A DNA stretch of 64,000 nucleotides from Kofleriaceae bacterium. GTDB taxonomy: Bacteria; Myxococcota_A; Polyangia; Haliangiales; Haliangiaceae. Both the position numbers and the translations under genes were made by a program. Location: positions 336,242 to 400,241 of the forward strand of contig DASTLB010000022.1 in NCBI GenBank assembly GCA_035715365.1, given 5' to 3'. Each line of letters starts with the position of its first letter. Positions within the stretch are counted from its first letter, which is position 1. Below, one piece after another: positions 31,670 through 57,386 of this stretch. A model generated the notes under the pieces. That model was given only the letters and a program-made list of their open reading frames with translations. It was not told the DNA's origin and made no database searches.

Positions 31670-31688
31670 GGGGTCTCCCTAGTATGAC

Positions 31689-32816
31689 TCAGGGGTTCTT
31701 CGGTGCAGGCGTCTTCGCGTTCGTCTTGCTGTTCTTCTTCTGTTTCTTCTGTTCGCGCTTGATCGCCTTGTCGACATCCTTCATGCGCTGGTCGTACAGC
31801 TTGATGTCCACGCCCGGCATGTTCTTGTACTGATCGAAGTACGACTTCGCGGCGTTCAGGCGCTGCAGCTCGTCGGTGATGCCCGGATACGGCGACGTAT
31901 CGAGGTAGAGCAGGCCGAGGTTGTAGTAGGCCGGCCCATAGTTCGGGTTCGCTGCGAGTGCGCGCTTGTAGGCAGCCTCGGCGGTGCGCACGAACTGATC
32001 GCGCTCGGCCGCGCCCTGCGGATACTCCGCCGACCGGCCGCGATACGACGAGCCGAGCGACGTGAGCGTGATCGCATCGTTGCGGCCGAACTCCTTCGTC
32101 AGCCGCTCGAACGTCTGCTGCGCCTCGGCGTACTGGCTGTTCTTCAGCTGGTGGACGCCGAGGTTGACGAGCGCGCTCGCGTGCTTGCCGTCGAGCTCGA
32201 CCGCCTTCTGGTAGGCGACGCGCGCCTTCTCCGGGCGGTTCGTCTTGTCGTAGACGAGGCCGTAGACGTAGTAGACGTTCGCGTTCTGCTTCGCCGCCTC
32301 GCGCCGGAACAGATCGTCGAGCACGAGCTCGGCCGTGTCGTAGAGCTTCTTGTGGTAGTACGCGAACGCGACGTACGAAGCAGCTTCGATGTTCGCGGCG
32401 TCGATCGCGAGCGCGGCGCGCGCCTCGCGCAGCGCGGTGTCGGCATCCGGGTTCGCCTGCGACAGCGCGTTCTTCGCGATCACCAGGTGCGCGTCGACCT
32501 GGGTCTTCGCCTGCGCCGGATCGGGATCGAGGTTCGGCGGCACGACCGGCGGGCCGTCACTCGAGCCCGCGCCCGTGCCCCCGGTATCGCCGGTGCCGCC
32601 GGTGCCGCCCGGACCGCCGGGACCGCCGGCACTGCCGGTGCCCGGACCGCCCGGCTCGCCCTTGTCGTTCATCGACTGCGAGTCACCCGAGCCGGTCTTG
32701 TTCGTGTCCGGAGTCGTCTTGCCCTTCTTGCCACCGCCGCACGCAACGAGCGCGAGGCCGAGCAGGAGGGCGGCGAACCGGGACGACATATAGATCGATA
32801 CGCGCGACGCGGTCAT
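31689..32816 (-). CDS. TPR-repeat lipoprotein (GltE/AglT- or NfsE-like)
   Basis: Lipobox LLLGLALVAC|GG after ATG 32816 with a strong GAGGAGA RBS. Gly-rich linker, then TPR-like repeats (AYYNLGLLYLD...). Confidence 0.55.
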   Translation of the reverse strand: MTASRVSIYMSSRFAALLLGLALVACGGGKKGKTTPDTNKTGSGDSQSMNDKGEPGGPGTGSAGGPGGPGGTGGTGDTGGTGAGSSDGPPVVPPNLDPDPAQAKTQVDAHLVIAKNALSQANPDADTALREARAALAIDAANIEAASYVAFAYYHKKLYDTAELVLDDLFRREAAKQNANVYYVYGLVYDKTNRPEKARVAYQKAVELDGKHASALVNLGVHQLKNSQYAEAQQTFERLTKEFGRNDAITLTSLGSSYRGRSAEYPQGAAERDQFVRTAEAAYKRALAANPNYGPAYYNLGLLYLDTSPYPGITDELQRLNAAKSYFDQYKNMPGVDIKLYDQRMKDVDKAIKREQKKQKKNSKTNAKTPAPKNP

Positions 32817-32827
32817 CGGGTCTCCTC

Positions 32828-35800: not shown

Positions 35801-36505
35801 CGACTTCGAGTAGTCCGCGGTGATCGCGGTCTGCTCGGGCGCGTTCGGATCGGGCGGCGCCTTCTCGTTCGCGGCGAGCCGCGCCTCGACCTCCTCGTCG
35901 GCCTGATCGAGGTAGAGGTCGGCCAGCCGGAACATCGCGTCCGGCGTGAACGTCTCGTGCGCCGGGTGGTTCTGGAGGAACGCCTCGAGCAGCGCGATCG
36001 TGTCGCCGTGGTGCTTGCTGCGCGACGCCTCGATCTTCGCGATCCGGTCGGCGTACTTGTTGTTGAGATCGGTCGTGCGGGTGTCGAACTCGCGCTTGGC
36101 GATCGTTCGCATCCGCGTGTCCTGCTCGTTCGCGGCCTGGATGAAGCGCTCGTACTCGCCCTCGATATCCTTGAGCGCCTCGAGCTCCTTCGCGTTGAGC
36201 GTCAGCGGCTTGATATCGACGGGCTTCGCCGGCTGCGTCGGCTGGGTCGGGACCGGCTGCTTGCCGAGCCCTGGACCGTTCGGCGCATCCTGGACCGGGA
36301 CCGGGTTCGCCGAGCCCGAGCCGTTGCCGGTCGGTGCCGGCGGCGTCGTTGTCGTCGGTGCAGAACCACTGCCGCTGCCGGTCGGCGCCGGTGCGCTGCC
36401 GCTGTCGGTGGTCGTCGGCGTCGAGCCCGGCTGCGCGATCGCGAGCGTCGAGGCGACCGTCGTCGCGATCAGCGCGGCGAGCACCGCGCGAGTGCGTGAC
36501 TTCAT
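32828..36505 (-). CDS. Large (1225 aa) secreted TPR-rich protein, same size and architecture as AgmU/GltD (NfsD)
   Basis: Signal peptide MKSRTRAVLAALIATTVASTLAIA, Thr/Pro/Gly-rich linker, then extended TPR-like helical repeats throughout. ATG 36505 overlaps the upstream stop (ATGA). Confidence 0.55.
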   Translation of the reverse strand: MKSRTRAVLAALIATTVASTLAIAQPGSTPTTTDSGSAPAPTGSGSGSAPTTTTPPAPTGNGSGSANPVPVQDAPNGPGLGKQPVPTQPTQPAKPVDIKPLTLNAKELEALKDIEGEYERFIQAANEQDTRMRTIAKREFDTRTTDLNNKYADRIAKIEASRSKHHGDTIALLEAFLQNHPAHETFTPDAMFRLADLYLDQADEEVEARLAANEKAPPDPNAPEQTAITADYSKSLALWEQILTKFPNYRQTPSTLYLLAYYGKTKDERKSLQVFLALACANQYKWNGAPPKPPTREEALKRVERKQLRDPYATCQPYPNSEVELIRHAWVRGIADYHFTVPGELDEAIAAYLKVAEGGQDSKLYAESLYKLAWSYYKRDKLEDSIKRFDQSVKLYDQIVAQGGIPALELRDESIQYISVAMTDPWEGETDTNPVKAMERAKAFYKGRENEPHVRDVWVAMGKAFAELQAWDQAVDAYRIAIGPPWELHPNNPVVHQEIVNVFELKGDKYAADNAAAELATKYACPGTAWCQANEHDRVAMDNQRRIAERALYAAARNTHAAATQMRKDYEAAKSKDPAAKQEYLAMYAKAVDLYRQFVNTYPESDYTYEFTYNQGEALYWSERYPEAIVAYTWVRDHRDLGTAFYIDAARSIVQSYEAEAQKLVAEGKLQPLKIPTSAELKALPQPWQPQPIPDIYLKLQAEYDNYQNVVNDPAAAPQQGTNAALISLAYFHIDDAIARFTKVMDKFCGQAYAAKAKDGILAIYEAQSNFDAIEATNKRFINAKCGDKATLDAAIAQNRSLNFSRANALYAEKQYTQAAEAFYRFYKTAPPTDPDLPVALYNAAVSYKLADRPKTAISLFKEFAANPAKNFRESPYYLDALRLQASTYQAAFDYNNAVRTYLDLHATVKKAKQLKIKPPEPLPGEQPRTLDQIGLDALYNAALASELNRDFKKAIDLYKQYGNEEKDRTKLDRALKSIGGIYRQSGDVNSMEETYAKWRARYAKDSPENADFSVQTYYDAAALRKKKGQTVAAKKAGEDTIKEWKRLGATKGSAGAKLAGEWELSFAEDYYASKWEPYEIKKAAKNIKEAEAQGKALQAEKTKAEDQYLKLDQYGVAEMSMAAKVRYAEIQYSYATKLANAPIPTPVANASNPEILEKYQAQLDANVKKYLDEAKAQWIAVLDAAKKGGISNKWSRLAQENLGREFPQEFTVLRQEIVQGTEAP

Positions 36506-39012
36506 GGCGTACCTCCGCCCGTCTTCGGCTGCGTCGTCGTCTTCTTGGCCGGCGTCTTGGCCGGCGCCTTCTTCGGCTGCGTCGTCGTATCGCCGGGCTT
36601 CACGGTCGGCTGCGCGGGCGTCTTGTCGCCCTCGCCGCCGGGCTTGATCCGACCCTCGCCGTTGCCCTTGTCGGGGCTGCCGGCGGGCGGCTTCGGCTCG
36701 GTGCCGGGCTCGGTCGTCGGCGCCGGCTTCGGCGTCGGCTGCAGCACGGTCGCGGGCTGGAGCACGTCGCGGAACTCGTCCTTGAGCTGCTTGAGCTCGC
36801 GGGCGCGCGACAGGTTCAGCCGCTTCAGATCGTCGTCGTCATCTTCCTTCTGGGCCCAGCTGACGTCGACGTTGCCGACGTCGGTGCGGATCACGATGTC
36901 GTAGAACTTGTCCTTGACGTCCTTGAAGCTCGCGCCGAGCACGGTGCCACCGATCGAGCGCGACTCCGCGGACAGCTCGTCGAGCTCGCGCTTCATCCCG
37001 CCGAGGCTCGCCTTCTCCTGCGCGAGCGAGGTCTTGACCTGCTGCATGCCGGTGTCGACCGCGGCGTCGATCGCGGCCTCGGTGCGGTCGAGATCGTCGG
37101 CGAGCCGAGCCGCGCGCTCCGCGAGCTGCGCCGCCTTGCCGCTGCCGCGCAGCGACTTGAATTCCGCGTCCTCGGCGGCCTTGACCTGCGTGCGCAGATC
37201 GCGCGCCTTCTTCGTGTTCTCGTCGCCGACCGCGGCGAGGTCGCGGCCGAGCACGATCTCGCGCTGGACATCCTGGATCTCGTCCTCGATCGCCTGCGCT
37301 TCCTTCGCCGCCTCGTCGAGCGACTTGATGAGGTTCGTCTTCGCGGTCGCGTCCATCGCCGGCTTCGCGTCGGTTGCGTACTTGCGCATCGCGACCGCCA
37401 TCGCCTGCGTCGAGTCGATCGCGCTCGACACCTCGCCGGCCGCGGTCTCGACCGCGTCGTAGTCCGCCTGTGCCTTCGAGATCATGTCGACGCGCGCCTG
37501 CTCGGCGTTCGGCATCGCGAGGTACTGACCGACGAGCGCCTTGCGATTGGCGTCGCTGCCGCCCAGCTGATCGTGGAGATCGCTGCGCAGCTTGATCAGC
37601 TCGCGCTGCATCTCGCCGATCCGCGACCGCCGCGTCTGCAGCGCCGGATAGACCGCGGTGCGATCGTTCGCGGCGAGCACGCCCTCGAGCCGCGCGATGA
37701 TCGCCTCGGACTGCGCGATGTTCGACTCGACCTCGCCGAGATCGGTCTCGACCTCGAGCGCGCGCTGGACCTCGGGCTCCTCGCGCAGGTACTGCGCGGC
37801 GGCCTCGGGCATCGGCGCGGTGGTCTGGAACACGTGCGCGTTGCGGCCCGCGAGCTGCGAGAGGTACTGGCCCGCGTCGGCCTTCGTGTCGACCATCTGC
37901 GCGAGCGCCTCGTACGACGGCGCGTACATGTCGTGGGTCTCGGTGAAGACCTTGTTCGCCTTGTCGTACTCGGCGGCGGGGTCCGCGTTGCGGACGTTGA
38001 CGTCGAGCGTGCCGATGATCTGCGCCTGGCGGATCATCTGCGCCTTGCGGATCCGCAGGTTGCCCTCGAGGATGCGCACGGTCGGCGTCTTGTGCGACTC
38101 GGGCTCGGACTGCGCGAGCAGCTCGAGCGCGCGCAGCGCCTTGTCGTACTGCTTGCTCTTCACGTAGACCCACGCGACCTCGTACAGCGCGTCCGGGAAC
38201 AGATCGCTGTGGCGATCGACGAGCAGGTAGCTGTCGATCGACTTCGAGGGCTGGTTCTGCTCGTAGTAGAGCCGGCCGAGCGCGAGCTGCGACAGCTCGA
38301 TGATCCGGCGATCCTGCGCGGTCTTCGGCTTGCGGCCGACGAGATCGACGTAGATCTCGGTCGCCTTCGCGAGCTCCTTCTTCGCGACGAGCGTCGTCGC
38401 GGTGTAGTACGCGGCCTGCATCTCGTGCTCGTTGCCCTTCGGCACGAGCGCGAACGCGGCGAGCGCGTCGTCGAGCTTGCCCTCGTTGAACGCGAGCTTG
38501 CCCTTGACGTACGCGACGTCGGTCGCGTGCGGACCGCTCGCCATGCCGTTGAGCTGCGAGACGTACGGCGCGACCGCCTGGGTATCGCGCTGCGCGATCC
38601 CGATCTCGACGATGCGCAGCACCGCGGTCTGGTAGTACTTGCCGCCCGCGTTGTTCTGACCGGCGAGCTGCTCGAAGTACGTGCGCGCGCCGCCGCGATC
38701 GCCCTTCTGGTACAGCGACTCGGCGAGGTAGTACGTCGCGGTCTCCTGATCGGGCCCGGGCTTGCTCGCGAGATCGAACAGTGCGAGCGCCGCCTCGTCG
38801 TAATCACCGAGCGAGAACGCGATCTGCGCGTCGACGAGCTTGCGCTGATGCTGCGCACCGGACAGCTGGTTCGGCGTCGGCAGATCGGTACCGAGCTGGC
38901 GCGCTTCGGACTCGAGCGCGGTCAGGCGTTGTTCGGCGTCGGCGCCGGCCGTGCTCGGCAGGCACAGCGCGCCCAACGTACCCAGGAGGAACGACGCAAG
39001 CCTGCGATGCAT
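36502..39012 (-). CDS. TPR/coiled-coil periplasmic protein (836 aa; GltC/NfsC-like) with a Pro/Thr/Lys-rich C-terminal tail
   Basis: Signal peptide MHRRLASFLLGTLGALCLPSTAGA, N-terminal TPR repeats, a long coiled-coil middle, and C-terminal PTPKPAPTTEPGTEPKPPAG... low-complexity tail. Confidence 0.5.
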   Translation of the reverse strand: MHRRLASFLLGTLGALCLPSTAGADAEQRLTALESEARQLGTDLPTPNQLSGAQHQRKLVDAQIAFSLGDYDEAALALFDLASKPGPDQETATYYLAESLYQKGDRGGARTYFEQLAGQNNAGGKYYQTAVLRIVEIGIAQRDTQAVAPYVSQLNGMASGPHATDVAYVKGKLAFNEGKLDDALAAFALVPKGNEHEMQAAYYTATTLVAKKELAKATEIYVDLVGRKPKTAQDRRIIELSQLALGRLYYEQNQPSKSIDSYLLVDRHSDLFPDALYEVAWVYVKSKQYDKALRALELLAQSEPESHKTPTVRILEGNLRIRKAQMIRQAQIIGTLDVNVRNADPAAEYDKANKVFTETHDMYAPSYEALAQMVDTKADAGQYLSQLAGRNAHVFQTTAPMPEAAAQYLREEPEVQRALEVETDLGEVESNIAQSEAIIARLEGVLAANDRTAVYPALQTRRSRIGEMQRELIKLRSDLHDQLGGSDANRKALVGQYLAMPNAEQARVDMISKAQADYDAVETAAGEVSSAIDSTQAMAVAMRKYATDAKPAMDATAKTNLIKSLDEAAKEAQAIEDEIQDVQREIVLGRDLAAVGDENTKKARDLRTQVKAAEDAEFKSLRGSGKAAQLAERAARLADDLDRTEAAIDAAVDTGMQQVKTSLAQEKASLGGMKRELDELSAESRSIGGTVLGASFKDVKDKFYDIVIRTDVGNVDVSWAQKEDDDDDLKRLNLSRARELKQLKDEFRDVLQPATVLQPTPKPAPTTEPGTEPKPPAGSPDKGNGEGRIKPGGEGDKTPAQPTVKPGDTTTQPKKAPAKTPAKKTTTQPKTGGGTP

Positions 39013-39015
39013 GAT

Positions 39016-39846
39016 TCACTTCCCCGGCGGTGGAGTGGTGGTTCCGGTGGGCGTCGGCGCGGGCGGAGTCGGCGCGGGCTTGTCCGGCACGACCTCGGTC
39101 ACCTTGCACTCGACCGCGGCGCGCTTCTCGAGCGGCACGGTCGGGCCACCCTTCTCGTAGCCCTTGCAGTCGACCTTCTGGACCTTGCCCTCGCCGGCGA
39201 CGAACGACTGCGCGCCCTTCGCGGTGAACGTGTACTTCGAGAGGTACTCGAACACGCCGTAGCCGTGACCGCGGTAGATCGCGACGACGCTGAGGTTGTG
39301 GTTGCCCGGCGCGATCGGCCCCGAGAAGATGTCGAAGCTCTTCGTCTTGTAGAGGCTCTCGCCGGTCTCGTCGGTGCGCGCGAACACCTGCGTACCGTCG
39401 AGCGAGTAGATCAGCTTCGTCAGCCGGAACGAGCTGCCCATCTCGTTCGAGTGCGTGACGAGCGTCTGCGCGCCGACGCCACCGCCGAGCATCTGCTCCT
39501 TGAGCATCTGCACGCGCGCCTTGAGCTGCCACGCGCGCTCCTTGAGCGCCTGCGTCTTCTGCTCGAGCCGGCGCATCCGCACCGCGGTCGGCATATCCGC
39601 GGGCGGCACCGTCGACGGATCGGTCTTCGCGACGGGCGTCGGAGCCGGCGTGTTCGACGCGGTCGGTCCCGCGCTACCGGTGTCCGATCCGCTACCGGTC
39701 GCCGGCGCCTTGTCCTTCGAGGGCGTGCCCTTCGCCGGGGTCTTGGCAGTCGTCCCCGTGCCCTTCTTGTCCGCCGCTGGCTGCGCCGTGACAGCGCCCG
39801 CGATCAACAGCGACGACATGACCACAACACTCGAAGTAGCTCGCAT
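39016..39846 (-). CDS. Secreted protein (276 aa), first gene of the Glt/Nfs-like operon; Thr/Pro-rich N-terminal region, short coiled coil, C-terminal globular domain
   Basis: Signal peptide MRATSSVVVMSSLLIAGAVTA. No recognisable catalytic motif. Confidence 0.45.
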   Translation of the reverse strand: MRATSSVVVMSSLLIAGAVTAQPAADKKGTGTTAKTPAKGTPSKDKAPATGSGSDTGSAGPTASNTPAPTPVAKTDPSTVPPADMPTAVRMRRLEQKTQALKERAWQLKARVQMLKEQMLGGGVGAQTLVTHSNEMGSSFRLTKLIYSLDGTQVFARTDETGESLYKTKSFDIFSGPIAPGNHNLSVVAIYRGHGYGVFEYLSKYTFTAKGAQSFVAGEGKVQKVDCKGYEKGGPTVPLEKRAAVECKVTEVVPDKPAPTPPAPTPTGTTTPPPGK

Positions 39847-39991
39847 GCCTGGCTCTCCAACCGGCTCTCACCGGTTCTTGATTTGCGCTGGATGTACCGT
39901 GTCTCTCAGCGCAGTTTTTCCGTTTGGAATGGCCCGGTTGTAACACCCGGTTCCGGGCTTCTCAAGCAGACCGCTCCTCGGTTTTCGCATC

Positions 39992-41014
39992 TCACCCGTG
40001 CCTCTTGTCGCCGGGCCTCACGAGATGGGACCACAACGTCTCCAAGATCACAGCGATCCCTTCGCCGGTCGCTGCGGACATCGTGAATAGCTTCACGCCG
40101 ATCGCCTCGAACGCGGCCACGATCTCGTCGATCCGATCACGCTCGAGCGCATCGACCTTGTTGAGCGCGACGACTTGTGGCTTGTCCGCGAGGTGCGGGG
40201 CAAACCGCCCCAGCTCCGCATTGATCACGTGGAAGTCGCGCACCGGATCGCGATCCGGTCCGGTCGTGAACGTCGCGTCGATGATGTGCAGCAGCACGCG
40301 GCAGCGCTCGACGTGGCGCAGGAACTGGAGCCCGAGCCCCGCGCCCTCGGCCGCGCCTTCGATCAGCCCGGGGATGTCGGCGATCACGAAGTTGCGCTCG
40401 TCGGACAGCGGCACGACGCCGAGGTTCGGCACGAGCGTCGTGAACGGATAGTCCGCGATCTTCGGCCGCGCGCGCGACACGTGCGAGATGAACGTCGACT
40501 TGCCGACGTTGGGAAACCCGAGCAGCCCGACGTCGGCGAGCAGCTTGAGCTCGAGCCGCACCGTGCGCTCCTCGCCGGGAGTTCCGGGCTCGGCGTCGCG
40601 CGGCGCCTGGTTCCACGGCGTCTTGAAGTGGATGTTGCCGCGCCCGCCCTTGCCACCCTGCGCGAGCACGAACGACGCGCCATCCTCGGCGAGATCGGCG
40701 AGGGGCGTCTCGCTGCCCTCCTCGAAGATCATCGTGCCGACCGGGACCTTCAGCGTGAGATCCTCGCCGCGCGCGCCGTATTGATCCTTGTTGCGGCCGT
40801 CCTCGCCGCGATCGGCCTTGTAGTGCCGGCGATACTTGAAGTCGAGCAGCGACGACAGCCGTGAGTCGGCGAGCACGATCACGCTGCCGCCATCGCCACC
40901 GTCGCCGCCGGAGGGCCCACCGCGCGGCACACCATCCTCGCGCCGGAACGCAGCGGACCCGTTGCCGCCGTCCCCGGCCTTCACGTGGATGAGGGCCTCG
41001 TCGATGAACTGCAT
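39992..41014 (-). CDS. obg: GTPase ObgE/CgtA
   Basis: Obg fold N-terminus FIDEALIHVKAGDGGNG...GGDGGDGG. G-domain motifs GFPNVGKST (G1), DIPGLIEGA (G3), NKVD (G4). Confidence 0.95.
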   Translation of the reverse strand: MQFIDEALIHVKAGDGGNGSAAFRREDGVPRGGPSGGDGGDGGSVIVLADSRLSSLLDFKYRRHYKADRGEDGRNKDQYGARGEDLTLKVPVGTMIFEEGSETPLADLAEDGASFVLAQGGKGGRGNIHFKTPWNQAPRDAEPGTPGEERTVRLELKLLADVGLLGFPNVGKSTFISHVSRARPKIADYPFTTLVPNLGVVPLSDERNFVIADIPGLIEGAAEGAGLGLQFLRHVERCRVLLHIIDATFTTGPDRDPVRDFHVINAELGRFAPHLADKPQVVALNKVDALERDRIDEIVAAFEAIGVKLFTMSAATGEGIAVILETLWSHLVRPGDKRHG

Positions 41015-45561: not shown

Positions 45562-47019
45562 CTACCGGCCGAGACGTTTTCGCAGCAGATCCGACGTCAT
45601 GATCGGGTTCGCCCGGCCTTGCGTCTGCTTCATGACCTGGCCGACGAAGAACCCGAACAGCCCGTCCTTGCCCGCGGCGTACGCCTCGGCCTGCTTGGGA
45701 TTCGCGCTGACGACGCGATCGATGATCTCCCACAGCTGCGGCTCGTCGGAGATCTGCTGCACGCCGCGGCGCTCGACGATGTCGCGCGGCGGCTCGCCGG
45801 TCTGGTAGCTCTCGGCGAAGATCTCCTTGCCGATCTTGCCGCTGATCGTGCCGTCCTCGACGAGCACGACGAGCGCGGCGATCGTCGCGGGCGGCATCGG
45901 TGACTGCGTGATGTCCTTGCCGTCGGCGTTGAGCGCGCCGAGCAGCTCGGTCAGCATCCAGTTCGCGATCGTGCGGCCGCCGCGCTCGCTCGGGTGCGCC
46001 TCGCACGCTGCGTCGAAGTACTCGGCCATCGCGCGCTCGGAGACGAGCGTGCGCGCGTCGTCGGGCGATACGCCGTGCACGCGCTGATAGCGCTCGAACC
46101 GCGCGACCGGCAGCTCGGGCATGCCGCGCAGCGTGCTCGCCATCAGCTCGCCGTCGACGACGAGCGGCGGCAGATCGGGATCGGGAAAGTAGCGATAGTC
46201 GTTCGCCTCTTCCTTCGAGCGCAGCGGCGCGCTCTGTCCGATCGTCGCGTCCCACAGGCGGGTCTCGCGCTCGATCCGCCCGCCACCGTCGACGATCCGC
46301 AGCTGCCGCACGATCTCGTGATCGACCGCGTTCTGGACGAACCGGAACGAGTTGATGTTCTTCAGCTCGGTGCGCGTGCCGAGTCGATCCTCACCGCGCA
46401 TCCGCACGCTGACGTTCGCGTCGCAGCGCAGCTGGCCCTTTTCCATGTCGGCCTCGGAGATGTCGAGCCAGCGCACGAGCCGGTGCAGCGAGCGCATGAA
46501 CTCTGCCGCTTCTTCGGCCGACGTCAGCTCGGGCGCCGACACGACCTCGACGAGCGGCACGCCCGCGCGGTTGAGATCGACGTGCGACAGCGTGCCGACG
46601 TGCGTGTTCTTGCCCGCGTCTTCCTCGAGGTGGATCCGCGTCAGCTTCACGCGCTTGACCGCGCCTGCGATGATCAGATCGAGGTGGCCGTGCTCGCACA
46701 GCGGCTCGTCGTACTGCGAGATCTGATAGCCCTTCGGCAGATCGGGATAGAAGTAGTGCTTGCGCGCGAACCGCGAGCGCGCGCGGATCTGCGATTCGGT
46801 CGCGACACCGAGCCGGAGCGCGAGCTCGAGCGCGGCGCGATTGAACACCGGCAGCGCGCCGGGCAGGCCGAGCACGATCGGATCGGTCAGCGAGTTCGGT
46901 GGCTCGCCGAACCGGGTCGCGCTCGGCGAGAACGCCTTGCTCTTCGTCGCGAGCTGGACGTGGACCTCGAGGCCGATCACCGGCTCCCAGTCCGCGAGCA
47001 TCTCGGGGACCGATCTCAT
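45562..47019 (-). CDS. gatB: Asp-tRNA(Asn)/Glu-tRNA(Gln) amidotransferase subunit B
   Basis: [13 protein letters not shown]..., GatB/YqeY C-terminal domain. ATG 47019 overlaps the gatA stop (ATGA). The track ORF 45562-48045 is a read-through artefact. Confidence 0.95.
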
Positions 47020-48473
47020 GCGATCCCTCGTGGCCGGCGGTCGACGACGTCCGCGGTCTGCTCGATCACGCGGCCGACGCGGAGCAGCGTCGCCTCGTCG
47101 AGCGGCTTGCCGAGCAGCTGCGCGCCGATCGGCAGCCCTTCGCGCGACAGCGCGCACGGCACGCTGATCCCCGGCAGCCCGGCGAGGCTGCACGCGAGCG
47201 TGAACACGTCGGCGAGGTACATGTCGAGCGGCGTCGTCTTCGCGCCGAACGCGAACGCGACGGTCGGGGTCGTCGGCGTGAGCAGGACATCGACCGCCTG
47301 GAACGCGGCGTCGAAGTCGTGCTTGATCAGCGACCGTACCTGCTGCGCCTTCTTGTAGTACGCGTCGTAGTAGCCGGAGCGCAGCGCGTAGGTGCCGAGC
47401 ATGATCCGGCGCTTGACCTCGGGGCCAAAGCCCGCGCCGCGTGTGCGCCGGTACAGCTCGAGCAGGTTGTCGGTGTCGACGCGCTTGCCGTAGCGCACGC
47501 CGTCGTAGCGCGCGAGGTTCGACGACGCCTCGGCCGGCGCGACGACGTAGTACGCGGGCAGCGCGAGGCTCGTGTGTGGCAGCGACACCTCGGACACGAT
47601 CGCGCCCTGGTCGCGCAGCGCGCTGACCGTGCGCTCGAGTGCGGCGCGGACGTCGGCGTCGAGCGTGCCCGCGTAGTACTCGCGCGGCAGGCCGATCTTG
47701 AGCCCCGCGACGCCGGCATCGAGCGTGCGCGCGTAGTCGGGCACCGGGACGTCGAGCGACGTCGCGTCGCGCGGATCGTGGCCGGCGATCGCCTGCAGCA
47801 TCGCCGCGGCATCGCCGACGGTGCGCGCGAGCGGACCGACCTGATCGAGCGACGACGCGAACGCGATCACGCCCCACCGCGACACCCGGCCGTACGTCGG
47901 CTTGAGCCCGACGACACCGGAGAACGCCGCGGGCTGGCGGATCGAGCCGCCGGTGTCGGTGCCGAGGCTCGCGGTGCACAGCCCGGCCGCGACCGCGGCG
48001 GCGCTGCCGCCCGAGCTGCCGCCGGGCACGCGCGAGGTGTCCCACGGGTTCTTCGTCTTCCGGACGCTCGAGGCTTCGGTCGAGCTGCCCATGCCGAACT
48101 CGTCGAGGTTCGTCTTGCCGATCACGATCGCGCCGGCCGCGCGCAGCTTCTCGACGACGGTCGCGTCGTACGGCGGGATCCAGCCCGCGAGGATCTGCGA
48201 GGCCGCGGTCGTCGCGATCCCGCGCGTCACGAGGTTGTCCTTGAGCGCGACCGGGACGCCGGCGAGCGGCCCCAGCGGCTCGCCCGCCGCGCGCTTGCGA
48301 TCGAGCTGCGCGGCCGCGTCACGCGCGCCGGCCTCGTCGAGCGCGAGGTACGCGCCGAGCTCGCCATCGATGCTCGCGATCCGCGCGAACATCGCGTCGA
48401 CGATCCGGACCGCGGTCGTCTCACCGGCGGCGATCCGGCGCGCGATGTCGGCGGCCGTCCAGTACTCGGTCAT
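47016..48473 (-). CDS. gatA: Asp-tRNA(Asn)/Glu-tRNA(Gln) amidotransferase subunit A (amidase signature family)
   Basis: Amidase signature [32 protein letters not shown]. Confidence 0.95.
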
Positions 48474-50174: not shown

Positions 50175-52124
50175 CTAGCGCCGGAGGCGGGATTCGAGCA
50201 GGCGCGCCTCGGTCGCGGCCTCGACGTGCTGCGGCTCGAGGCGCAGCACCTCCTTGAACAGCCGGAGCGCATCGGCATCGCGGCCGAGCATGCGCTCGAC
50301 CCGGCCGAGCAGGAACCGCGGGGTCACGGCGCGCACCGACCGGTTCATCGCCTTCGTCAGCGCGCCGCGGGTCGCGGTCGCGACCAGGGACTTGTCGGGC
50401 GCGGCGCAGAACTGCGACCAGGCGTGGAGCGCGTGGTAGTCGGGCTCCTCGGGGTTGAGCTCGACCGCGCGTGCGAACTCGGCGATCGCGGCCGGGAGAT
50501 CGTTGCGCCGCATCGCCTGCTCGCCGCGCAGGTAGGCGTCCTCGGCCTCGACGATCTTCTGGGCGAGCTGCTCGGCCTTCTGCTGCTCGGCGCGCACCGC
50601 GGCCTCACCGCCGCGCTTGAGGATGTCGGTGTAGTGCTCGCGGCGCTTCGCATCGGACAGCACGGCGAACGCGGTGTTGACCTGCGCGAACAGTCGCTGC
50701 GCGTCGCGGTTGTCGTCGGCGATGCTCAGCGCGGCGAGCCGATCCGGGTGGAGCTGGCGGGCGAGCGCGAAGTACGCCTTGCGGATGTCCTCGGGCTTGG
50801 CGTCCTGGGCCACGCCGAGCATCGCGTAGTGATCGGCGCCGGTCTTGAGCAGCTGCATGCGCTGGGCGATCAGCGCGCGGACGTCGGCGGCCTGCGCGGA
50901 CTCGGTCTTCTTGCGCTGCGGGATCGGCGTCGAGCTGCCGTGCCGACCACGCGCGAGCGGCGGTGGCTCGCTCGGCGCGCGGTCGCGGATCGCGGGAGGC
51001 TCGAGACGCTTGCCGTCACCGCGTGGCAGGGACTGGGTGCCCGGGGTGCCGAGCGGCGGCAGCTGGCCACTGCTGCGGCGATCCATGCGCGCGTGGCTGT
51101 GCGACTCCGCCGACGACGATGCGGGCACGCGCGCGACCGGCGTGTCGATCGTGGGCCGGACGAGCGGCTGCATGTCCGACGACGACCGCCGCGTCAGCAC
51201 GGGCACCTCGGTGCTCGCCTGGCGGACGACCGGATCGGCGGTGCGGCGAGGAACGCGCGAGGGCGCGTCGGCGGCGGGCGCGCCGGCGTCGTCGCTCGGG
51301 TCGATCAGATCCCGCGTCGCGCGGCGCGGCGGCACCGGCAAGCCCTTGCGATGGAGCGACGCGGCCTTCGCGACCTCGGTCGGCACGCTGGCCGGCGGCA
51401 CCGCGAGCGGCCGTCCCGGGACCTCGACCTCGCACGCGTTGCACGACACGAGCGCGTACACCGTCGAGCGCACGAGGCGCTGCTCGCCGCACTTCTCGAG
51501 CTCGCCGAGCGTCGCGCCCTGCAGCAGACGATCGATCACCGGCCGCTCCTGATCGCCGAAGCCGTACTGCGGCAGGTCCTCGAACGCCTCCGGCCGCAGC
51601 CGGAACCAGATGCCGAACTTGCCGAGATCGGAGGCGAGCCGCGCCTCGGACAGGTACTGGCGCGCGCCGAGATAGATCACCGCGCGGATGTCGAGCTCGC
51701 TGCCGGCGATGCACGGCACGGTGATCTCCTCGTCGATCACGAACTCGCCGCGATCGATCGAGAACGTGCGCGCGGCCCGCTGCGCGACGCACCGCCGGCG
51801 CAGCCGGATCGCCTGCTCCGGGGTCAGCCGCACGAGCTCGGCGATCACGTCGATCTCGTCGCGCTCCGGTGCCGCCGCCATCCGCCGCGCGACGTCCGCG
51901 GCGTGCGTCGACGACACGAGGCCGCCGGTCAGAGCGATTCGTACGGCGGCATCGGCCGCGAGCGGCGAGTGGGCACCGACGATCGCGCCGTACGAGAACC
52001 CGATGTGATAGCGCTTACCGTCGGACGCGAGGGTCAGCTGGCCGGTGACGCCGCGCAGGCCCAGCGTGCCGACGGTCCGCCCCCAGGGCCGATCTGCGAT
52101 CGTGCCGCGTGCGAGCTCGGCCAC
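50175..52124 (-). CDS. Multidomain J-domain protein: N-terminal DUF (about 230 aa, myxobacterial-type), Pro/Ser/Arg-rich linker, DnaJ J-domain, C-terminal TPR
   Basis: J-domain DHYAMLGVAQDAKPEDIRKAYFALARQLHPDR (HPD motif). C-terminal TPR-like LRGEQAMRRNDLPAAIAEFARAVELNPEEPDYHALHAW. Confidence 0.75.
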   Translation of the reverse strand: MAELARGTIADRPWGRTVGTLGLRGVTGQLTLASDGKRYHIGFSYGAIVGAHSPLAADAAVRIALTGGLVSSTHAADVARRMAAAPERDEIDVIAELVRLTPEQAIRLRRRCVAQRAARTFSIDRGEFVIDEEITVPCIAGSELDIRAVIYLGARQYLSEARLASDLGKFGIWFRLRPEAFEDLPQYGFGDQERPVIDRLLQGATLGELEKCGEQRLVRSTVYALVSCNACEVEVPGRPLAVPPASVPTEVAKAASLHRKGLPVPPRRATRDLIDPSDDAGAPAADAPSRVPRRTADPVVRQASTEVPVLTRRSSSDMQPLVRPTIDTPVARVPASSSAESHSHARMDRRSSGQLPPLGTPGTQSLPRGDGKRLEPPAIRDRAPSEPPPLARGRHGSSTPIPQRKKTESAQAADVRALIAQRMQLLKTGADHYAMLGVAQDAKPEDIRKAYFALARQLHPDRLAALSIADDNRDAQRLFAQVNTAFAVLSDAKRREHYTDILKRGGEAAVRAEQQKAEQLAQKIVEAEDAYLRGEQAMRRNDLPAAIAEFARAVELNPEEPDYHALHAWSQFCAAPDKSLVATATRGALTKAMNRSVRAVTPRFLLGRVERMLGRDADALRLFKEVLRLEPQHVEAATEARLLESRLRR

Positions 52125-52331
52125 GTCATCGCCCCCGTCGCCACAGCCGACGGGCCACGTAGGTCACGGCGGCGAGCACAATCACGACGACGACGATCAG
52201 TACGCCCGTCCGATTGCCCTCGGCGTATCCCCACATTGACTACAGAATGGAAGGATCGGAGACCCGAGTCAATCGGCGCGGGTCCGTGACTGGCTCGCGC
52301 TCGTGATGGTGGGCTACAATTTGCACGAATC

Positions 52332-53119
<788 letters not shown>

Positions 53120-53123
<4 letters not shown>

Positions 53124-53473
53124 AGGCGCTCGTCGTCGTGCTCGCGCTCGTCGCCGGCTGCAGCAAGCAGGAAGACGCGCCGAAGAAGCAGACCAAGCCG
53201 CCGGCGATCCCGGCCGTCGAGCTCCAGCGCGGCACCGACGCGTGCAACGACTACGTCAAGCGCGCGTGCGCGTGCGCCGAGACCGTGCCGGCCGCGAAGG
53301 AGGCATGCGCGCTCGGCAAGGCGCTGCCCGAGGCGATCGACATCGCGAAGCGGCTCGCCACGAATCCCGACGCCGACGACGAGGATTCGCACCAGGCCGC
53401 GGACAGCATCCGCAAGACCGTCAAGAACTGCATCGAGCAGACGGCGAAGCTACCGGCGCTCGGCTGTCCCTGA
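53120..53473 (+). CDS. Small Cys-rich lipoprotein, ATGA-coupled to the PP2C phosphatase
   Basis: MKALVVVLALVAGC|SK lipobox plus 8 further Cys. The track ORF 52751-53473 has a junk N-terminus. Confidence 0.45.
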
Positions 53474-54869
53474 GCCGGTGTAGCGGCGGGCCCTCGGTCT
53501 CGGCGAGCAGCGCCCGGCTGATCTCCGGGCAGATCGGCGCGAGCGCCTCGGCCGCGGCACGGGCGAGCGCGATCGGGGTCGCGAGCGCGCGGGCCGCCGC
53601 GGCGCGATCGGTCCTCGCGAGCCGCCACGGCGCCGTCTGATCGAGCAGCCGGTTCGCGGTATCGGCGACGTCGACGATCGCGGCCGCCGCCTCGTCGATG
53701 CAGAACGCGTCGAGCGCGGCGTCGATCCGCCCCGGCAGCGCGACGGCCTCGGGCGGGGGCGCGACGTCGACGCGGCCGACGCTCGCCGCGAGCGTGCGCG
53801 TGCGATGCACGAGGTTGCCGAGCCGGTCGACGAGGTCGCCGTCGTGCGCGGCGACGATCGCGTCGCGCGTGACGTCGGAATCGGCGCGCGTCCGGCAGCG
53901 CCGCGCGAAGAACCAGCGCAGCGCATCGCGGCCGACGTCGGCGACGACCGGCTCGACCGCGAACCCGCGGCCGGACTTCGCGATCTTCTCGCCGTCGACG
54001 GTGAGGTAGCCGTGGACGAAGATCCGGTCCGGCAGTGGCAGGTTCGCCGCCAGCAGGAACGCCGGCCAGTACACCGCGTGAAACCGCGTGATGCCCTTGC
54101 CGATCACGTGCGTGACCTCGGCGTCGCGCCACCAGCGCTCGACGAGTGGCGCGTCGCCGCCGAGCGACAGTGCGGACAGATAGTTCGCGAGCGCGTCGAA
54201 CCACACGTAGATCACCTGCGACGGATCGCCCGGGACCGGGATGCCCCAGCCCGAGCCGGCGCGGGTGGCGTCGCGCGACACGCTGAGATCGCGGACCTCG
54301 CCGTCGAGAAACGCGAGCGTCTCGGCGCGCGCCGCGTCGGGGACGATCGTCAGCCGGCCGCTCGCGATCGCGTCGCGGATCGGCGCGCGGTAGCGCGACA
54401 GCCGGAAGAACCAGTTGTCCTCGACGACGCGCTCGGGCGCGGTGCCATGCTCGGCGCACGGCGCGGCGCTGTCGACGAACGCCTCGCAGCCGACGCAGTA
54501 GTGGCCCTCCCAGGCACGGCGGTAGAGATCGCCGGCGCACGCGCGCCACAGGTGCTCGACGGCGACGCGGTGCCGCGGATCGCGCGACGTCCGCACGAAG
54601 TCGTCGATCGACAGCCCGAGCAGGTCGCCGAGCTGCGCGAACGCCGCGGCGTTGCGCTCGACGAGCGCGGCGGTCGCGAGGCCCTCGCGGGCCGCGGCGC
54701 GCACGTTCTTGAGGCTGTGATCGTCGGTGCCGGCGACGAGCTTCACCGCATCGCCGCGGCGCCGGCGATGGCGCGCGAGGATGTCGGCGAGCACGAGCTC
54801 GTAGGCGAACCCGAGGTGTGGGGTGGCGTTGACGTAGGGAATGGCGGTGGTGATGAACGACGTCGTCAT
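53421..54869 (-). CDS. Class I aminoacyl-tRNA-synthetase, methionyl-tRNA-synthetase-like (short form) with non-canonical HLGF and KIAKS motifs
   Basis: AIPYVNATPHLGFAYELVLADILARHRR resembles the MetRS PYANGxxHLGH region. WFDALANY and a KMSKS-position GEKIAKSG are present. About 480 aa with no C-terminal dimerisation/tRNA-binding extension. Confidence 0.6.
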   Translation of the reverse strand: MTTSFITTAIPYVNATPHLGFAYELVLADILARHRRRRGDAVKLVAGTDDHSLKNVRAAAREGLATAALVERNAAAFAQLGDLLGLSIDDFVRTSRDPRHRVAVEHLWRACAGDLYRRAWEGHYCVGCEAFVDSAAPCAEHGTAPERVVEDNWFFRLSRYRAPIRDAIASGRLTIVPDAARAETLAFLDGEVRDLSVSRDATRAGSGWGIPVPGDPSQVIYVWFDALANYLSALSLGGDAPLVERWWRDAEVTHVIGKGITRFHAVYWPAFLLAANLPLPDRIFVHGYLTVDGEKIAKSGRGFAVEPVVADVGRDALRWFFARRCRTRADSDVTRDAIVAAHDGDLVDRLGNLVHRTRTLAASVGRVDVAPPPEAVALPGRIDAALDAFCIDEAAAAIVDVADTANRLLDQTAPWRLARTDRAAAARALATPIALARAAAEALAPICPEISRALLAETEGPPLHRLRDSRAPVASPSARCSS

Positions 54870-55107
54870 GGCAGTCCTCCTCGCCGGAGGCCGCCCTCGC
54901 GTCACACGCCGCGCGCTGCCACGAGGGCAGCCGTCGGCCGTTTGATCAGATCGCGCGCACGGATGCCCGACTCCCGAAGGAGCTATCGACAGGCATCGAC
55001 ATTCGCGTCGCGCGGTTCACGAGCTGACCATAGCCGATCGCGCGCGTCCGGCCGAGCGGTTCGTGCGCGCGCTGGCCAACTGCGCGGAGAAGCGGCAGGA
55101 TCGAGGC

Positions 55108-55470
55108 ATGCGGATGCTCGTGCTCGCCCTGCCCTTCGCGCTCGGTTGCAGCCGCGGTGCCCCCGACGTCGACTGCGCGAGCGTCGGCAACGGTGTCCGG
55201 AAGTTCTGGACCGAGAAGGCGCGGACCGCCGAGACGCCCGAGGATCGCGCCGAGGCCGAGGCGATGGGCAAGCGGTCGGCCGAGCGGCTCGAGCGCCACT
55301 GCAAGGCCGACGGCTGGTCGGCGGACTTCATCATCTGCGCGCGTGCCGCGGTGCAGCCCGAGGAAGCCGGCTGCATGAAGTACCTGAGCCGCGAGCAGTC
55401 CGGAAAGCTGATGATGGATCCGGTCGATCAGACGCCGCAGACGCCCGGCGGCCTCAACGTCGGCGGCTGA
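55108..55470 (+). CDS. Small Cys-containing lipoprotein (120 aa)
   Basis: MRMLVLALPFALGC|S lipobox. The track start 55063 is upstream. Confidence 0.45.
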   Translation: MRMLVLALPFALGCSRGAPDVDCASVGNGVRKFWTEKARTAETPEDRAEAEAMGKRSAERLERHCKADGWSADFIICARAAVQPEEAGCMKYLSREQSGKLMMDPVDQTPQTPGGLNVGG

Positions 55471-55471
55471 G

Positions 55472-56431
55472 CTACGTGAGGATCGGTTCGGTCGGGGACG
55501 CCGTCACCGTCGCGCCGGCCCACACGACCGCGTTCGCGACCGACGCACGGACGTCGGCGCCGTCGCCGATCACGGCGTTCGGACCGACGGTGACGCCCGC
55601 GGCGATCCGCGCGCCGGCACCGATCTTGACCGGCGCGACGATCGTCGCGGTCGCCGCGATCCGCGCGGTCGGATCGACGCCGACGAGCTGACCGGGCGGG
55701 TGGCGCAGCCGCGTCCCGCCGAGCAGCGCGAGGTTCGAGGCGACGTAGCGCTCCGGCGTCGAGTGCTCGGCGAAATAGCCACCGATGTGCTCGTACGCGG
55801 CGACCCGCTCGCCGGCGCGCAGCCACGGCAGGTAGCCCTGGCGGATCGAGTCGCTCTCGCCGTCGGGCAGCCGGCGCATCACCGACGGCCGCGTCACGTG
55901 GACGCCGCAGAACATGTGCTCGCCGTCGCCGAGGATGTTGACGACGTGCGGGCCGCGCGCGTCGTGGCGGACGTCGACCGCGCCCCACGCGACCGCATCG
56001 GGCACGCGCTGCACGACCATCATGCCGAGGATCGGACCGCGCTGCTCCTCGGCGCGATACGCGGCGAGCAGCGCGGCGACGTCGAGATCGAAGATCAGCT
56101 TGCCGTTGTGCGAGACGAACGGCTCGTCGGTGCCGTCGGGATCGAGGAGCGCGAGCGCGTGCTTGAGCCCGCCTCCGGTGCCGAGCAACGTCGGCTCGTA
56201 CGTGTACTGGATGCGCGCGCCGAGGTGGCGGCCGTCGCCGATCTCGGTCGTGATCAGGTCGCGCTTGTGATGCGTGTTGATCACGATGTCGCGGATGCCG
56301 TGCGCGACGAGGTTCGCGATCCCGTACGCGACGATCGGGATGCCGCACACCGGCAGCAACGGCTTGGGTCGCTCGGCTCCGATCGCGCCGAGCCGGGTCG
56401 ACAGCCCGGCGCACAGCATCATCGCGCGCAT
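55472..56431 (-). CDS. Sugar-1-phosphate nucleotidyltransferase with a C-terminal left-handed beta-helix (GlmU/MurU/mannose-1-P guanylyltransferase-like)
   Basis: N-terminal MLCAGLSTRLG...KPLLPVCGIPIV (G-x-G-T-R-L signature). C-terminal hexapeptide repeats (VKIGAGARIAAGVTVGPNAVIGDGADV). Confidence 0.8.
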   Translation of the reverse strand: MRAMMLCAGLSTRLGAIGAERPKPLLPVCGIPIVAYGIANLVAHGIRDIVINTHHKRDLITTEIGDGRHLGARIQYTYEPTLLGTGGGLKHALALLDPDGTDEPFVSHNGKLIFDLDVAALLAAYRAEEQRGPILGMMVVQRVPDAVAWGAVDVRHDARGPHVVNILGDGEHMFCGVHVTRPSVMRRLPDGESDSIRQGYLPWLRAGERVAAYEHIGGYFAEHSTPERYVASNLALLGGTRLRHPPGQLVGVDPTARIAATATIVAPVKIGAGARIAAGVTVGPNAVIGDGADVRASVANAVVWAGATVTASPTEPILT

Positions 56432-56505
56432 GACGCCACCGTGGCACAGCTCGCGCGGTCGAGCGACAAACTCGCGCGCGCCGGCGGCGGTGCTAGCGTC
56501 GAGGC

Positions 56506-57386
56506 ATGCGCGTCGGCCCGATCGATCGCTCGCAGCTCGCCGCGGCCGAGCTCGTGCTCGCGGACGCCTGTGCGTTCGACCGCGCCACCGAGGTCGCCGA
56601 CGAGAAGCTGTTCGAGCCGGGCCCGACCGCGCCCGCGCTCGCGTTCGGCGCATGGGACGGCAACGAGCTCGTCGGGGTCGCGGCGGTGTCGGCTCGCTGG
56701 CTGCGCGTCCTCGCGGTCGTCCCGCGGTTCCGCCGGCGCGGCGCCGGCTCGACGCTGCTCGCGGCGTGCGAGGCGACCGCGCGCGATGCCGGCGAGACCC
56801 GGCTCCGCACGCTCGACCAGCCCGGCAACTACCTCGCGCCCGGCATCGACGAGCGCAACACGTACGCGATCGGCTGGCTCGAGCGCCGCGGCTGGCAGCG
56901 CCACGACGAGCGCCGCCACGACGTCCTGATCGACGTCCGCACGAACCCGCGCGTGTCCGCCGACCGCGCGGACGAGCTCGCGACCGCGGCCGCCGCGAAG
57001 GGCTACGAGATCCGGCGCGCGCGTGCCGACGAGCATCCGCTGCTCGACGCGGTCGCGGCCGAGTTCGGCGGCGCCTGGCCGTTCGAGCTCGCGCGCGCGC
57101 TCGGTCACGATCCGCCCGGCGTCCACGTCGCGGTGCGCGACGGCGCGTACTGCGCGTTCGCGGCGCACGACGGCAACAACCGCGGGCTCGGCTGGTTCGG
57201 CCCGACCGGCACGTGGCCGGCGCACCGCGGCCAGGGCCTCGGCGAGGCGCTGCTCGTCGCGTGTCTCGTCGACGTCGGCCGTGACCACCCGCGCTGCGAG
57301 GTCGCGTGGATCGGCCCGCGCCCGTTCTACGACAAGGTCGCCGGCATCGCCGAGGACCGCTACTTCGTGCTGCTGACGCGCGACCT

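Follow-up and report, generated by a model that had tools for sequence, protein, structure and literature searches.

Does a methionine–tRNA ligase (MetRS) gene with altered signature motifs encode the remnant of a lost enzyme or a working synthetase, and, if it works, is it the only MetRS of its host or a second one? This question is raised by a minus-strand gene in the stretch of Kofleriaceae DNA analysed here (64 kb, hereafter the window), which the initial annotation took for a truncated, motif-degenerate MetRS-like protein, being either a minimal MetRS or a repurposed paralog. We consider it very probable that the gene is a complete, functional full-length MetRS, predicted to be catalytically competent. 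The wider reading, in which this competent enzyme is also a second, accessory copy in the host genome, is one to which we give an even chance; its second-copy part is what we infer from related genomes.

The gene itself is well defined. The coding sequence (53424..54869, minus strand) encodes 482 aa, as given by the list of open reading frames and by a Pfam match to tRNA-synt_1g (PF09334, 1.5e-78), and is followed by a TGA stop codon (53421–53423), so that the frame with its stop spans 53421..54869. The start codon (ATG, 54867–54869) is preceded at a distance of 5 nt by a Shine–Dalgarno-like GGAGGA (54875..54880, minus strand), read from the sequence, and is backed by homologs that share the same first residues (MTTSF...). 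The GC3 is 0.93, and the frame of about 480 aa that was first proposed is borne out. An NCBI entry named methionine--tRNA ligase [Kofleriaceae bacterium] (P0001) has equal length and is 100% identical to the protein.

The protein was initially thought to end without the anticodon-binding and C-terminal extension of a full MetRS, and alignment to MetRS structures was proposed as a check for lost anticodon-binding helices. No such loss is seen. Pfam reports an Anticodon_3 domain (PF19303) above cut-off (E = 1.6e-5), and this match, together with helices at residues 335–455 of a structural model, defines a helical anticodon-binding domain at approximately residues 335–460 (53490..53867, minus strand). 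Within it, N352 and R356 (53802–53816, minus strand) are conserved in 120/120 and 119/120 clade members, respectively, and W415 (53625–53627, minus strand) in 120/120. The best PDB match found by phmmer is Brucella MetRS (3e-85, residues 5–456 against 28–494), PDB alignments extend to residues 456–463, and MetRS structures of ~500 aa from Brucella, Mycobacterium, Thermus and Aquifex can be aligned with the protein over its entire length. The AlphaFold (AF2) model is of high confidence (pLDDT 94.8, pTM 0.93) and is matched by Foldseek to whole MetRS chains with TM scores of 0.81–0.88, including the Aquifex MetRS:tRNA complex 2ct8. What is missing is the C-terminal tRNA_bind domain (PF01588) alone, which is optional and typical of longer MetRS. 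With its anticodon domain intact, the protein is not truncated, and the gene should be annotated as a complete MetRS and not as a truncated or dead paralog.

Of the two options offered originally, a minimal MetRS or a paralog, the first is the one that the architecture supports, as it is that of the ~500-aa MetRS with one zinc knuckle. These enzymes (MetRS1 type; Thermus thermophilus 1a8h, Mycobacterium 2x1l/6ax8, Brucella 4dlp and Aquifex 2ct8) share the domain order of the window protein, measure ~480–520 aa, and have in common with it a CxxC...CxxH knuckle, the methionine pocket, both KMSKS lysines and the anticodon-binding N/R/W residues. Identity is nevertheless just 34–36% in the Foldseek alignment, and the window protein differs in having Phe as the fourth HIGH residue, GTDDHSLKN in place of GTDEHG.K, and KIAKS in place of KMSKS. 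This minimal, zinc-binding layout comprises a Rossmann fold, a connective-peptide knuckle, a stem-contact fold with the KMSKS loop, and a helical domain for anticodon binding.

Alignment to solved MetRS structures places both altered motifs, HLGF for HIGH and KIAKS for KMSKS as initially read, in exact register. The HIGH signature, H18-L-G-F21 (54807..54818, minus strand), falls on HIGH/HLGH of the Brucella, M. smegmatis and Thermus enzymes, and the KMSKS signature, K295-I-A-K298-S (53973..53987, minus strand), on KMSKS/KMSKT. The CVGC of the connective peptide, also noted originally, pairs with a downstream C-A-E-H, forming a zinc knuckle (C125-x2-C128 ... C138-x2-H141; 54447..54497, minus strand; translation CVGCEAFVDSAAPCAEH) equivalent to the CxxC...CxxH of Thermus MetRS in the structure alignment. 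All four zinc ligands are invariant in the 120 closest homologs, as are K295 and K298, the two KMSKS lysines. The third KMSKS residue varies in the same set (S in 97, R in 12, A in 10 and G in 1), while I10, N14, H18, G20, D49, W223, A226, Y230, I260, H264 and W268 are near-invariant. The methionine pocket (I10, Y12 as Y/F, D49, W223, A226, Y230, I260 and H264) is kept in 119–120 of the 120; we take these residues to correspond to L13, Y15, D52, W253, A256, Y260, I297 and H301 of E. coli MetRS, D49 being presumably Asp52 and H264 His301. An enzyme with these residues would bind methionine and ATP to form Met-AMP and would then charge tRNA-Met, with N352, R356 and W415 reading the CAU anticodon.

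The altered HIGH motif is not a sign of decay either. HxGF is found in all 120 closest homologs (Kofleriaceae, 63–73% identical), which belong to a clade of more than 120 clusters at 90%. Since, in addition, this branch of MetRS shows natural variation at the fourth HIGH position, 'motif-degenerate' does not fit. Among 150 representatives clustered at 50%, this residue is H in 86, F in 29, T in 12, Y in 7, S in 4 and N in 2. As 54 aligned representatives of related MetRS thus carry F, Y, T, S or N, this branch cannot be defined strictly by HxGH. F also occurs at this position in members from CPR and DPANN genomes, and one canonical Myxococcota MetRS reads HLGT. The variation is coupled to a second site: F or Y at position 21 goes with L, A or I at position 25, and H at 21 mostly with F at 25. 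In our opinion, Phe21 is a tolerated packing variant, coupled to the residue that lies one helical turn further along. A point against full competence is that activation rates fall in E. coli MetRS when the second histidine of HIGH is mutated. Whole clades in which this histidine is replaced by Phe or Tyr, with an aromatic-to-aliphatic compensation one helical turn on, provide a testable statement on its real contribution in MetRS.

The window gene belongs to a distinct, little-studied short MetRS subfamily, which is recognizable by the signature TTAIPYVNAxPHxG[F/H/Y]A.E ... G[TS]D[DE][HN][SA]LKN ... K[IML]xK[ST]. Its protein reaches none of the curated NCBIfam MetRS equivalog cut-offs, narrowly missing that of metG TIGR00398 (335.7 bits vs 336.35), falling well short of that of NF008900 (348 vs 598) and scoring far below those of the other models; it is a divergent subfamily member of MetRS. 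Our literature search found no published description of a second or HxGF MetRS specific to this subfamily. CPR and DPANN genomes have MetRS of this short type, presumably as their sole one, and the same subfamily supplies plasmid-borne extra copies in rhizobia and actinomycetes.

These plasmid-borne copies speak for an accessory role. The closest relatives outside Myxococcota are plasmid genes of Rhizobium (sp. CCGE531/532), Sinorhizobium (sp. RAC02), Agrobacterium (A. pusense) and Streptomyces (sp. NBC_01558), with 48–53% identity and HxGF throughout. Like the window protein they are of the short type (~500–520 aa, HVGF/HLGF, K[I]xKS) and stand alone without conserved partners; they often have an Arg preceding the KMSKS motif (GRKISKS), where the window protein has Glu. 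They lie on plasmids or chromids, and we infer that their hosts also carry a chromosomal, canonical metG. Many actinomycetes have the short type too, as chromosomal homologs, according to the 600 matches listed in a scan of a genome collection (subfamily alignment as query); none of these matches is from a Kofleriaceae genome. Moreover, other Myxococcota, including Sandaracinaceae, encode a distinct MetRS of 660–690 aa in a conserved holB-metG-tatD synteny, and Sandaracinaceae also carry the short type, so that both types occur there at the family level. This canonical enzyme is of the same family, and a catalytic core of ~437 residues can be aligned with the window protein at 38–39% identity. 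It differs in its signatures (YYVNDRPHxGHAYS / GLDEHG / KMSKS), in ~190 additional C-terminal residues with PF01588 and in its TetR-holB-metG-...-tatD neighbourhood. The window gene lies outside this synteny, and its neighbours differ between members of the Kofleriaceae clade. Branches are furthermore long, and the GARP content is high, at 0.41 compared to at most 0.37 in canonical enzymes. The canonical 660–690-aa enzyme would then be encoded beyond the window, which holds no second MetRS, with the short form coexisting as an accessory isoform that may serve as a backup, under stress conditions or as an inhibitor-insensitive copy. We lean, at close to even balance, towards a host genome that also has the canonical MetRS. 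Against this accessory role stand the large clade, whose functional sites are all as tightly conserved as those of an essential gene would be, the presumed sole-copy status in CPR and DPANN genomes, and the lack of Kofleriaceae among the canonical enzymes listed.

Somewhat less probable, yet a serious contender, is that the short HxGF form replaced the long canonical enzyme in Kofleriaceae and is their only, housekeeping MetRS, charging both initiator and elongator tRNA-Met. Two dedicated searches for the canonical enzyme (a Myxococcales canonical query and a 30-sequence profile) returned no Kofleriaceae among ~19 taxon-labelled matches listed, while 13 of 14 taxon-labelled HxGF matches carry that label. 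This absence carries little weight, because the best 120 matches of each search lack cultured Polyangia as well. None of the canonical-protein loci examined lies in an assembly that also holds a short-type gene (JACKDU01, JAIOJK01, ERZ25039538), and no contig with both gene types is among the 120 matches listed in a metagenome DNA-pattern scan. A housekeeping role also agrees with the size of the clade and its invariant catalytic and anticodon residues, with HxGF members in CPR and DPANN genomes, which are unlikely to keep a spare MetRS, and with the NCBI name, strong ribosome-binding site and normal codon bias of the gene. However, the clade is nested among the plasmid-borne extras of rhizobia and Streptomyces, sister Myxococcota families keep the canonical enzyme (alongside the short type in Sandaracinaceae), and the protein scores under every equivalog cut-off.

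If the short form is indeed an accessory MetRS, what could it be selected for? One tentative and rather improbable generalization sees in the short HxG[F/Y] subfamily an alternative MetRS that moves horizontally among soil bacteria, on plasmids in rhizobia and Streptomyces and on the chromosome in Kofleriaceae and actinomycetes. Its remodelled adenylate site, in which Phe at the fourth HIGH position packs against a compensating residue one turn further along, would then confer a selectable property; by analogy with mupirocin and GXHH-IleRS2, the enzyme might withstand a natural MetRS inhibitor, or else oxidative or other stress conditions. Less probable still, and in fact unlikely, is the more specific proposal, related to the antibiotic resistance raised initially, that the window protein itself is an inhibitor-insensitive isoform, in which HxGF, GTDDHS and KIxKS would preserve activity and abolish affinity for a natural inhibitor. 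We know of no such inhibitor. There is a precedent in IleRS2, a class I synthetase that is fully active despite a HIGH motif altered to G/AXHH in whole clades, just as HxGF is fixed in the Kofleriaceae clade, and that raises the Ki of mupirocin up to 1000-fold (PMC10485003). In IleRS2, however, the first and third HIGH positions are swapped and resistance has been demonstrated, whereas the window protein is a different enzyme with a change at the fourth position only. Resistant aminoacyl-tRNA synthetase paralogs, MetRS included, are known to spread by horizontal gene transfer (PMC5388404), and the short subfamily is found on plasmids of soil bacteria, one of them conjugative. On the other hand, no biosynthetic cluster accompanies a short-subfamily gene here or at any locus examined, and H and F variants alternate across the subfamily, sole-copy lineages included. 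Should extra copies prove to make their hosts tolerant of inhibitors or stress, they could be used as pointers to MetRS inhibitors that are yet to be discovered.

The non-canonical HIGH and KMSKS motifs might also be read as those of an enzyme that activates amino acids for secondary metabolism, as initially suggested, and does so independently of tRNA, or as those of a decaying, inactive paralog. Both are very improbable, because the anticodon residues and the methionine pocket are invariant in 120 homologs. Repurposed MetRS paralogs do exist (PMC2922099; PMC12376268): cupin/MetRS-like hydrazine synthetases contain a MetRS-derived catalytic domain, are encoded by additional genes of actinomycetes and proteobacteria, derive from an archaeal-type MetRS branch and show strict linkage to both a cupin and a lysine N6-monooxygenase (PMC2922099). 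The window protein, in contrast, has bacterial one-knuckle MetRS as its best matches; neither it nor eight neighbouring proteins contain a cupin domain, no cupin or lysine N6-monooxygenase is encoded within 5 kb, and no lysine N6-monooxygenase, NRPS or PKS is found among the large open reading frames of the window. These absences, the invariant residues and the intact frame with its GC3 of 0.93 largely refute both a hydrazine-synthetase-like protein and a pseudogene.

The gene has no biosynthetic cluster or mobile-element genes around it, and an Rfam scan of 52000–57000 finds neither a T-box nor a SAM riboswitch nor any other leader. Across 34 loci, short-subfamily genes have no conserved neighbours beyond the genus level; in Nonomuraea, the order is permease-MetRS-PTE-STAS-sigma. 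In the window, the gene converges with a small Cys-rich lipoprotein gene (MKALVVVLALVAGC..., read from its translation; 53120..53473, plus strand; GC3 0.94), a neighbour without a Pfam family that is not part of the enzyme. Their 3′ ends overlap by 53 nt, close to the ~50 nt first reported, and this overlap is due to a non-conserved, 17-residue C-terminal tail of the MetRS (LRDSRAPVASPSARCSS; 53424..53474, minus strand; pLDDT 58–65). Among the 98 homologs in which the conserved PP..PR end motif was located, 82 end 0–9 residues after it, 14 end 10–19 residues after it, and 2 extend by at least 20.

The window gene encodes a correctly annotated yet atypical MetRS, a member of a known enzyme family. 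Its ORF lies on the minus strand, from an ATG at 54869 to a TGA at 53421-53423, and encodes 482 aa; an alternative GTG start is possible and would give 494 aa. The ATG is the better start, because a GGAGGA lies upstream of it at a spacing of 5 nt, because MTTSF... forms the common first residues of the protein and its homologs, and because NCBI holds a protein of identical sequence and length (methionine--tRNA ligase, Kofleriaceae bacterium, on a 620-kb MAG contig). GC3 of the ORF is 0.93, as a genuine gene should show at this genome's G+C content of 70%. Translation bears out every letter that the initial annotation had read (PYVNATPHLGF, CVGC, KIAKS, a length of ~480 aa), and the 3′ overlap that it described with a convergent lipoprotein gene (53120-53473) measures 53 nt.

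The same annotation called the protein truncated and lacking the anticodon-binding/C-terminal extension of a full MetRS. It is instead a whole MetRS: Pfam, PDB, model and Foldseek matches all cover the anticodon domain. Pfam detects the MetRS catalytic domain (1.5e-78) and, above its cut-off, the MetRS anticodon-binding domain. The best PDB sequence match is the ~500-aa Brucella MetRS (3e-85, query 5-456 on chain 28-494), with further top matches to MetRSs of similar size (~500 aa) from M. smegmatis, Thermus, Aquifex and M. tuberculosis. An AlphaFold2 model built from 58 homologs (mean pLDDT 94.8, pTM 0.93) contains the helical bundle at residues 335-455, and Foldseek superposes it on entire MetRS chains, including the Aquifex MetRS:tRNA-Met complex (TM 0.81-0.88, normalised on either partner). 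The one part of longer MetRS forms that is absent from the window protein is their optional C-terminal tRNA_bind domain (PF01588). The last 17 residues are a non-conserved tail of low model confidence, which gives rise to the overlap with the lipoprotein gene; 82 of the 98 homologs in which the conserved end motif PP..PR was found terminate 0-9 residues after it.

The description as motif-degenerate holds for the letters but not for the decay it implies. In the alignment to PDB MetRSs, HLGF falls on HIGH/HLGH and KIAKS on KMSKS/KMSKT, and both remain noncanonical with correct gapping. Sequence comparison argues that this is not decay, since HxGF occurs in 120/120 of the closest homologs listed (63-73% identical to the window protein; 13 of the 14 with an organism label are Kofleriaceae). 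These 120 also keep both KMSKS lysines, the zinc ligands C125/C128/C138/H141, and I10, Y/F12, D49, W223, A226, Y230, I260 and H264, which we take to be the equivalents of the E. coli methionine pocket. Of the counterparts of the CAU-anticodon readers N391/R395/W461, N352 and W415 occur in all 120 and R356 in 119. With a mutual identity of only ~72% among members of this HxGF clade, invariant anticodon contacts would be unexpected for a protein no longer charging tRNA-Met. Little is left of the notion of a truncated, degenerate paralog.

The fourth HIGH residue varies naturally in this part of the MetRS family. Counts at this position, taken over the query and the best 150 representatives after clustering at 50% identity, are 86 H, 29 F, 12 T, 7 Y, 4 S and 2 N, and one canonical Myxococcota MetRS (P0383, closed genome CP064980) reads HLGT. 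Phe also occurs in proteins of Saccharibacteria, Parcubacteria and Aenigmarchaeota, in whose small genomes a spare MetRS would be unlikely. In 94 subfamily sequences, an F/Y at position 21 is in 47/47 cases accompanied by L/A/I one helical turn further on, at position 25 (positions 21-25 correspond to 54795-54809), while with H at position 21 the later residue is mostly F (22 F, 12 L, 6 K, 5 Y). F/Y members also have an Arg directly before KMSKS more often (23/47 vs 6/47). We read the 21/25 covariation as a packing swap, in a comparison that controls only weakly for shared ancestry, which may partly explain the pattern, although H and F switch several times across the neighbour-joining tree.

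Residue conservation and the model support a MetRS core with intact Met pocket, ATP-binding KMSKS loop, zinc knuckle and anticodon domain. Such an enzyme would make Met-AMP and charge tRNA-Met, with Phe21 presumably taking over the His contact by packing, offset at residue 25.

The window protein belongs to a distinct short subfamily, with the signatures PYVNAxPHxG[F/H/Y] and GTD[DE][HN][SA]LKN. It reaches none of the NCBIfam MetRS equivalog cut-offs (TIGR00398, 335.7 vs 336.35; NF008900, 348 vs 598). Among the matches listed from a scan of GTDB species genomes, relatives 44-56% identical occur in one Myxococcales MAG, Rhizobium, Gemmatimonadota, Latescibacterota, Chloroflexota and many actinomycetes (Amycolatopsis, Streptacidiphilus, Nonomuraea, Longispora, Kibdelosporangium, Actinoplanes, Nocardia, Streptomyces), and relatives 36-42% identical in CPR bacteria and DPANN archaea. 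The neighbour-joining tree joins the Kofleriaceae clade to a short form from Sandaracinaceae and to the Myxococcales MAG, all within a high-G+C group that also contains the rhizobial and actinomycete copies; this group adjoins Chloroflexota, then CPR/DPANN, far from canonical Myxococcota MetRS. PLSDB contains plasmid-borne members (48-53% identical, HVGF/HLGF) from Rhizobium sp. CCGE531/532 (pRCCGE532c, L094) and ACO-34A, Sinorhizobium sp. RAC02 (conjugative plasmid pBSY16_2, L095), Agrobacterium pusense and Streptomyces sp. NBC_01558 (L096), as stand-alone genes whose surroundings are oxidoreductase, regulator and stress genes and include a cold-shock protein, a DEAD-box helicase and msrA. 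A chromosomal canonical metG is to be expected in rhizobia and streptomycetes as well, which would make the short form there an extra copy. In four Nonomuraea loci (L012, L016, L022, L040), the short MetRS lies in a conserved same-strand run (DUF998, universal stress protein, amino-acid permease, MetRS, phosphotriesterase-family protein, STAS protein, sigma factor), which hints at a stress context. In the literature searched, we found no description of the natural HxG[F/Y] signature or of the mobile, accessory distribution of this subfamily.

Myxococcales, Polyangiales and Sandaracinaceae MAGs carry a different, canonical MetRS of 660-690 aa with a C-terminal tRNA_bind domain, which reads YYVNDRPHxGHAYS, GLDEHG and KMSKS and shares 38-39% identity with the window protein; Sandaracinaceae have both forms at family level. 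In the loci compared (L084-L087, L092, L093, L217-L221), its neighbourhood is conserved and usually (AspRS-MazG-)TetR-holB-metG-(HEAT)-tatD-L3-FtsJ, with two loci lacking holB upstream while keeping tatD downstream. Unlike these, the window gene lies outside holB/tatD synteny, and no second MetRS, holB or tatD occurs within the 64-kb window. That it is a second copy in this genome we consider about an even bet, since it shares a clade with probably accessory copies, sister families have the canonical enzyme, housekeeping synteny is absent, and branches are long with a more G+C-driven composition (GARP content 0.41 vs ≤0.37 in canonical forms). That it is the organism's sole MetRS is a serious but lesser possibility, favoured by the large, strictly conserved HxGF clade and by the lack of a Kofleriaceae canonical gene among the matches listed; none of the ~146 canonical clusters listed bears a Kofleriaceae label, but the same lists also miss Sorangium, Chondromyces and other cultured Polyangia, so this is no proof that Kofleriaceae lack one. 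As an extra isoform, the enzyme might serve as a backup or confer tolerance to an inhibitor or stress. An inhibitor-resistance role, an unlikely special case that adds slightly to the second-copy reading, has an analogue in IleRS2, whose kcat is maintained despite a changed HIGH motif (G/AXHH) while its mupirocin Ki rises up to 1000-fold (PMC10485003). Repurposing for secondary metabolism, also raised initially, does not fit: cupin/MetRS-like enzymes, according to PMC12376268 now known as hydrazine synthetases, derive from the archaeal-type branch and always go with a cupin and a lysine N6-monooxygenase (PMC2922099), whereas neither of these is found in the protein or among its neighbours, the window holds no NRPS or PKS, and the closest structures are bacterial MetRSs. 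This and the remaining readings together are very improbable. The biochemical role of Phe21 and the sole-versus-second status merit simple follow-up.

The gene's neighbours (lipoproteins, PP2C phosphatase, nucleotidyltransferase, GNAT, M16 peptidase) are not those of the clade members L001 and L003, and no T-box or riboswitch was found upstream. It is bracketed by small Cys-rich predicted lipoproteins on the plus strand without a Pfam family (MKALVVVLALVAGC..., 53120-53473; MRMLVLALPFALGC..., 55108-55470), the first starting 4 nt within the 3′ end of the PP2C phosphatase gene (ATGA overlap). A 649-aa protein (50175-52124, minus strand) carries DUF4388, a J domain and C-terminal TPR repeats together with a long low-complexity linker rich in Pro/Ser/Arg; the MetRS homolog in L001 likewise has a DnaJ-family gene next to it, in divergent orientation. 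The 827-aa mechanical GatB (Asp/Glu-tRNA amidotransferase B) ORF (45562-48045, minus strand) has GatB domains at residues 356-825 only; translation probably begins further inside the ORF, or a second gene overlaps its 5′ part. Finally, the stretch 30001-40000 is set apart from the rest of the window by a strongly negative AT skew (-0.19 to -0.36) and coincides with two very large minus-strand TPR-repeat ORFs (32828-36505 and 36502-39012).
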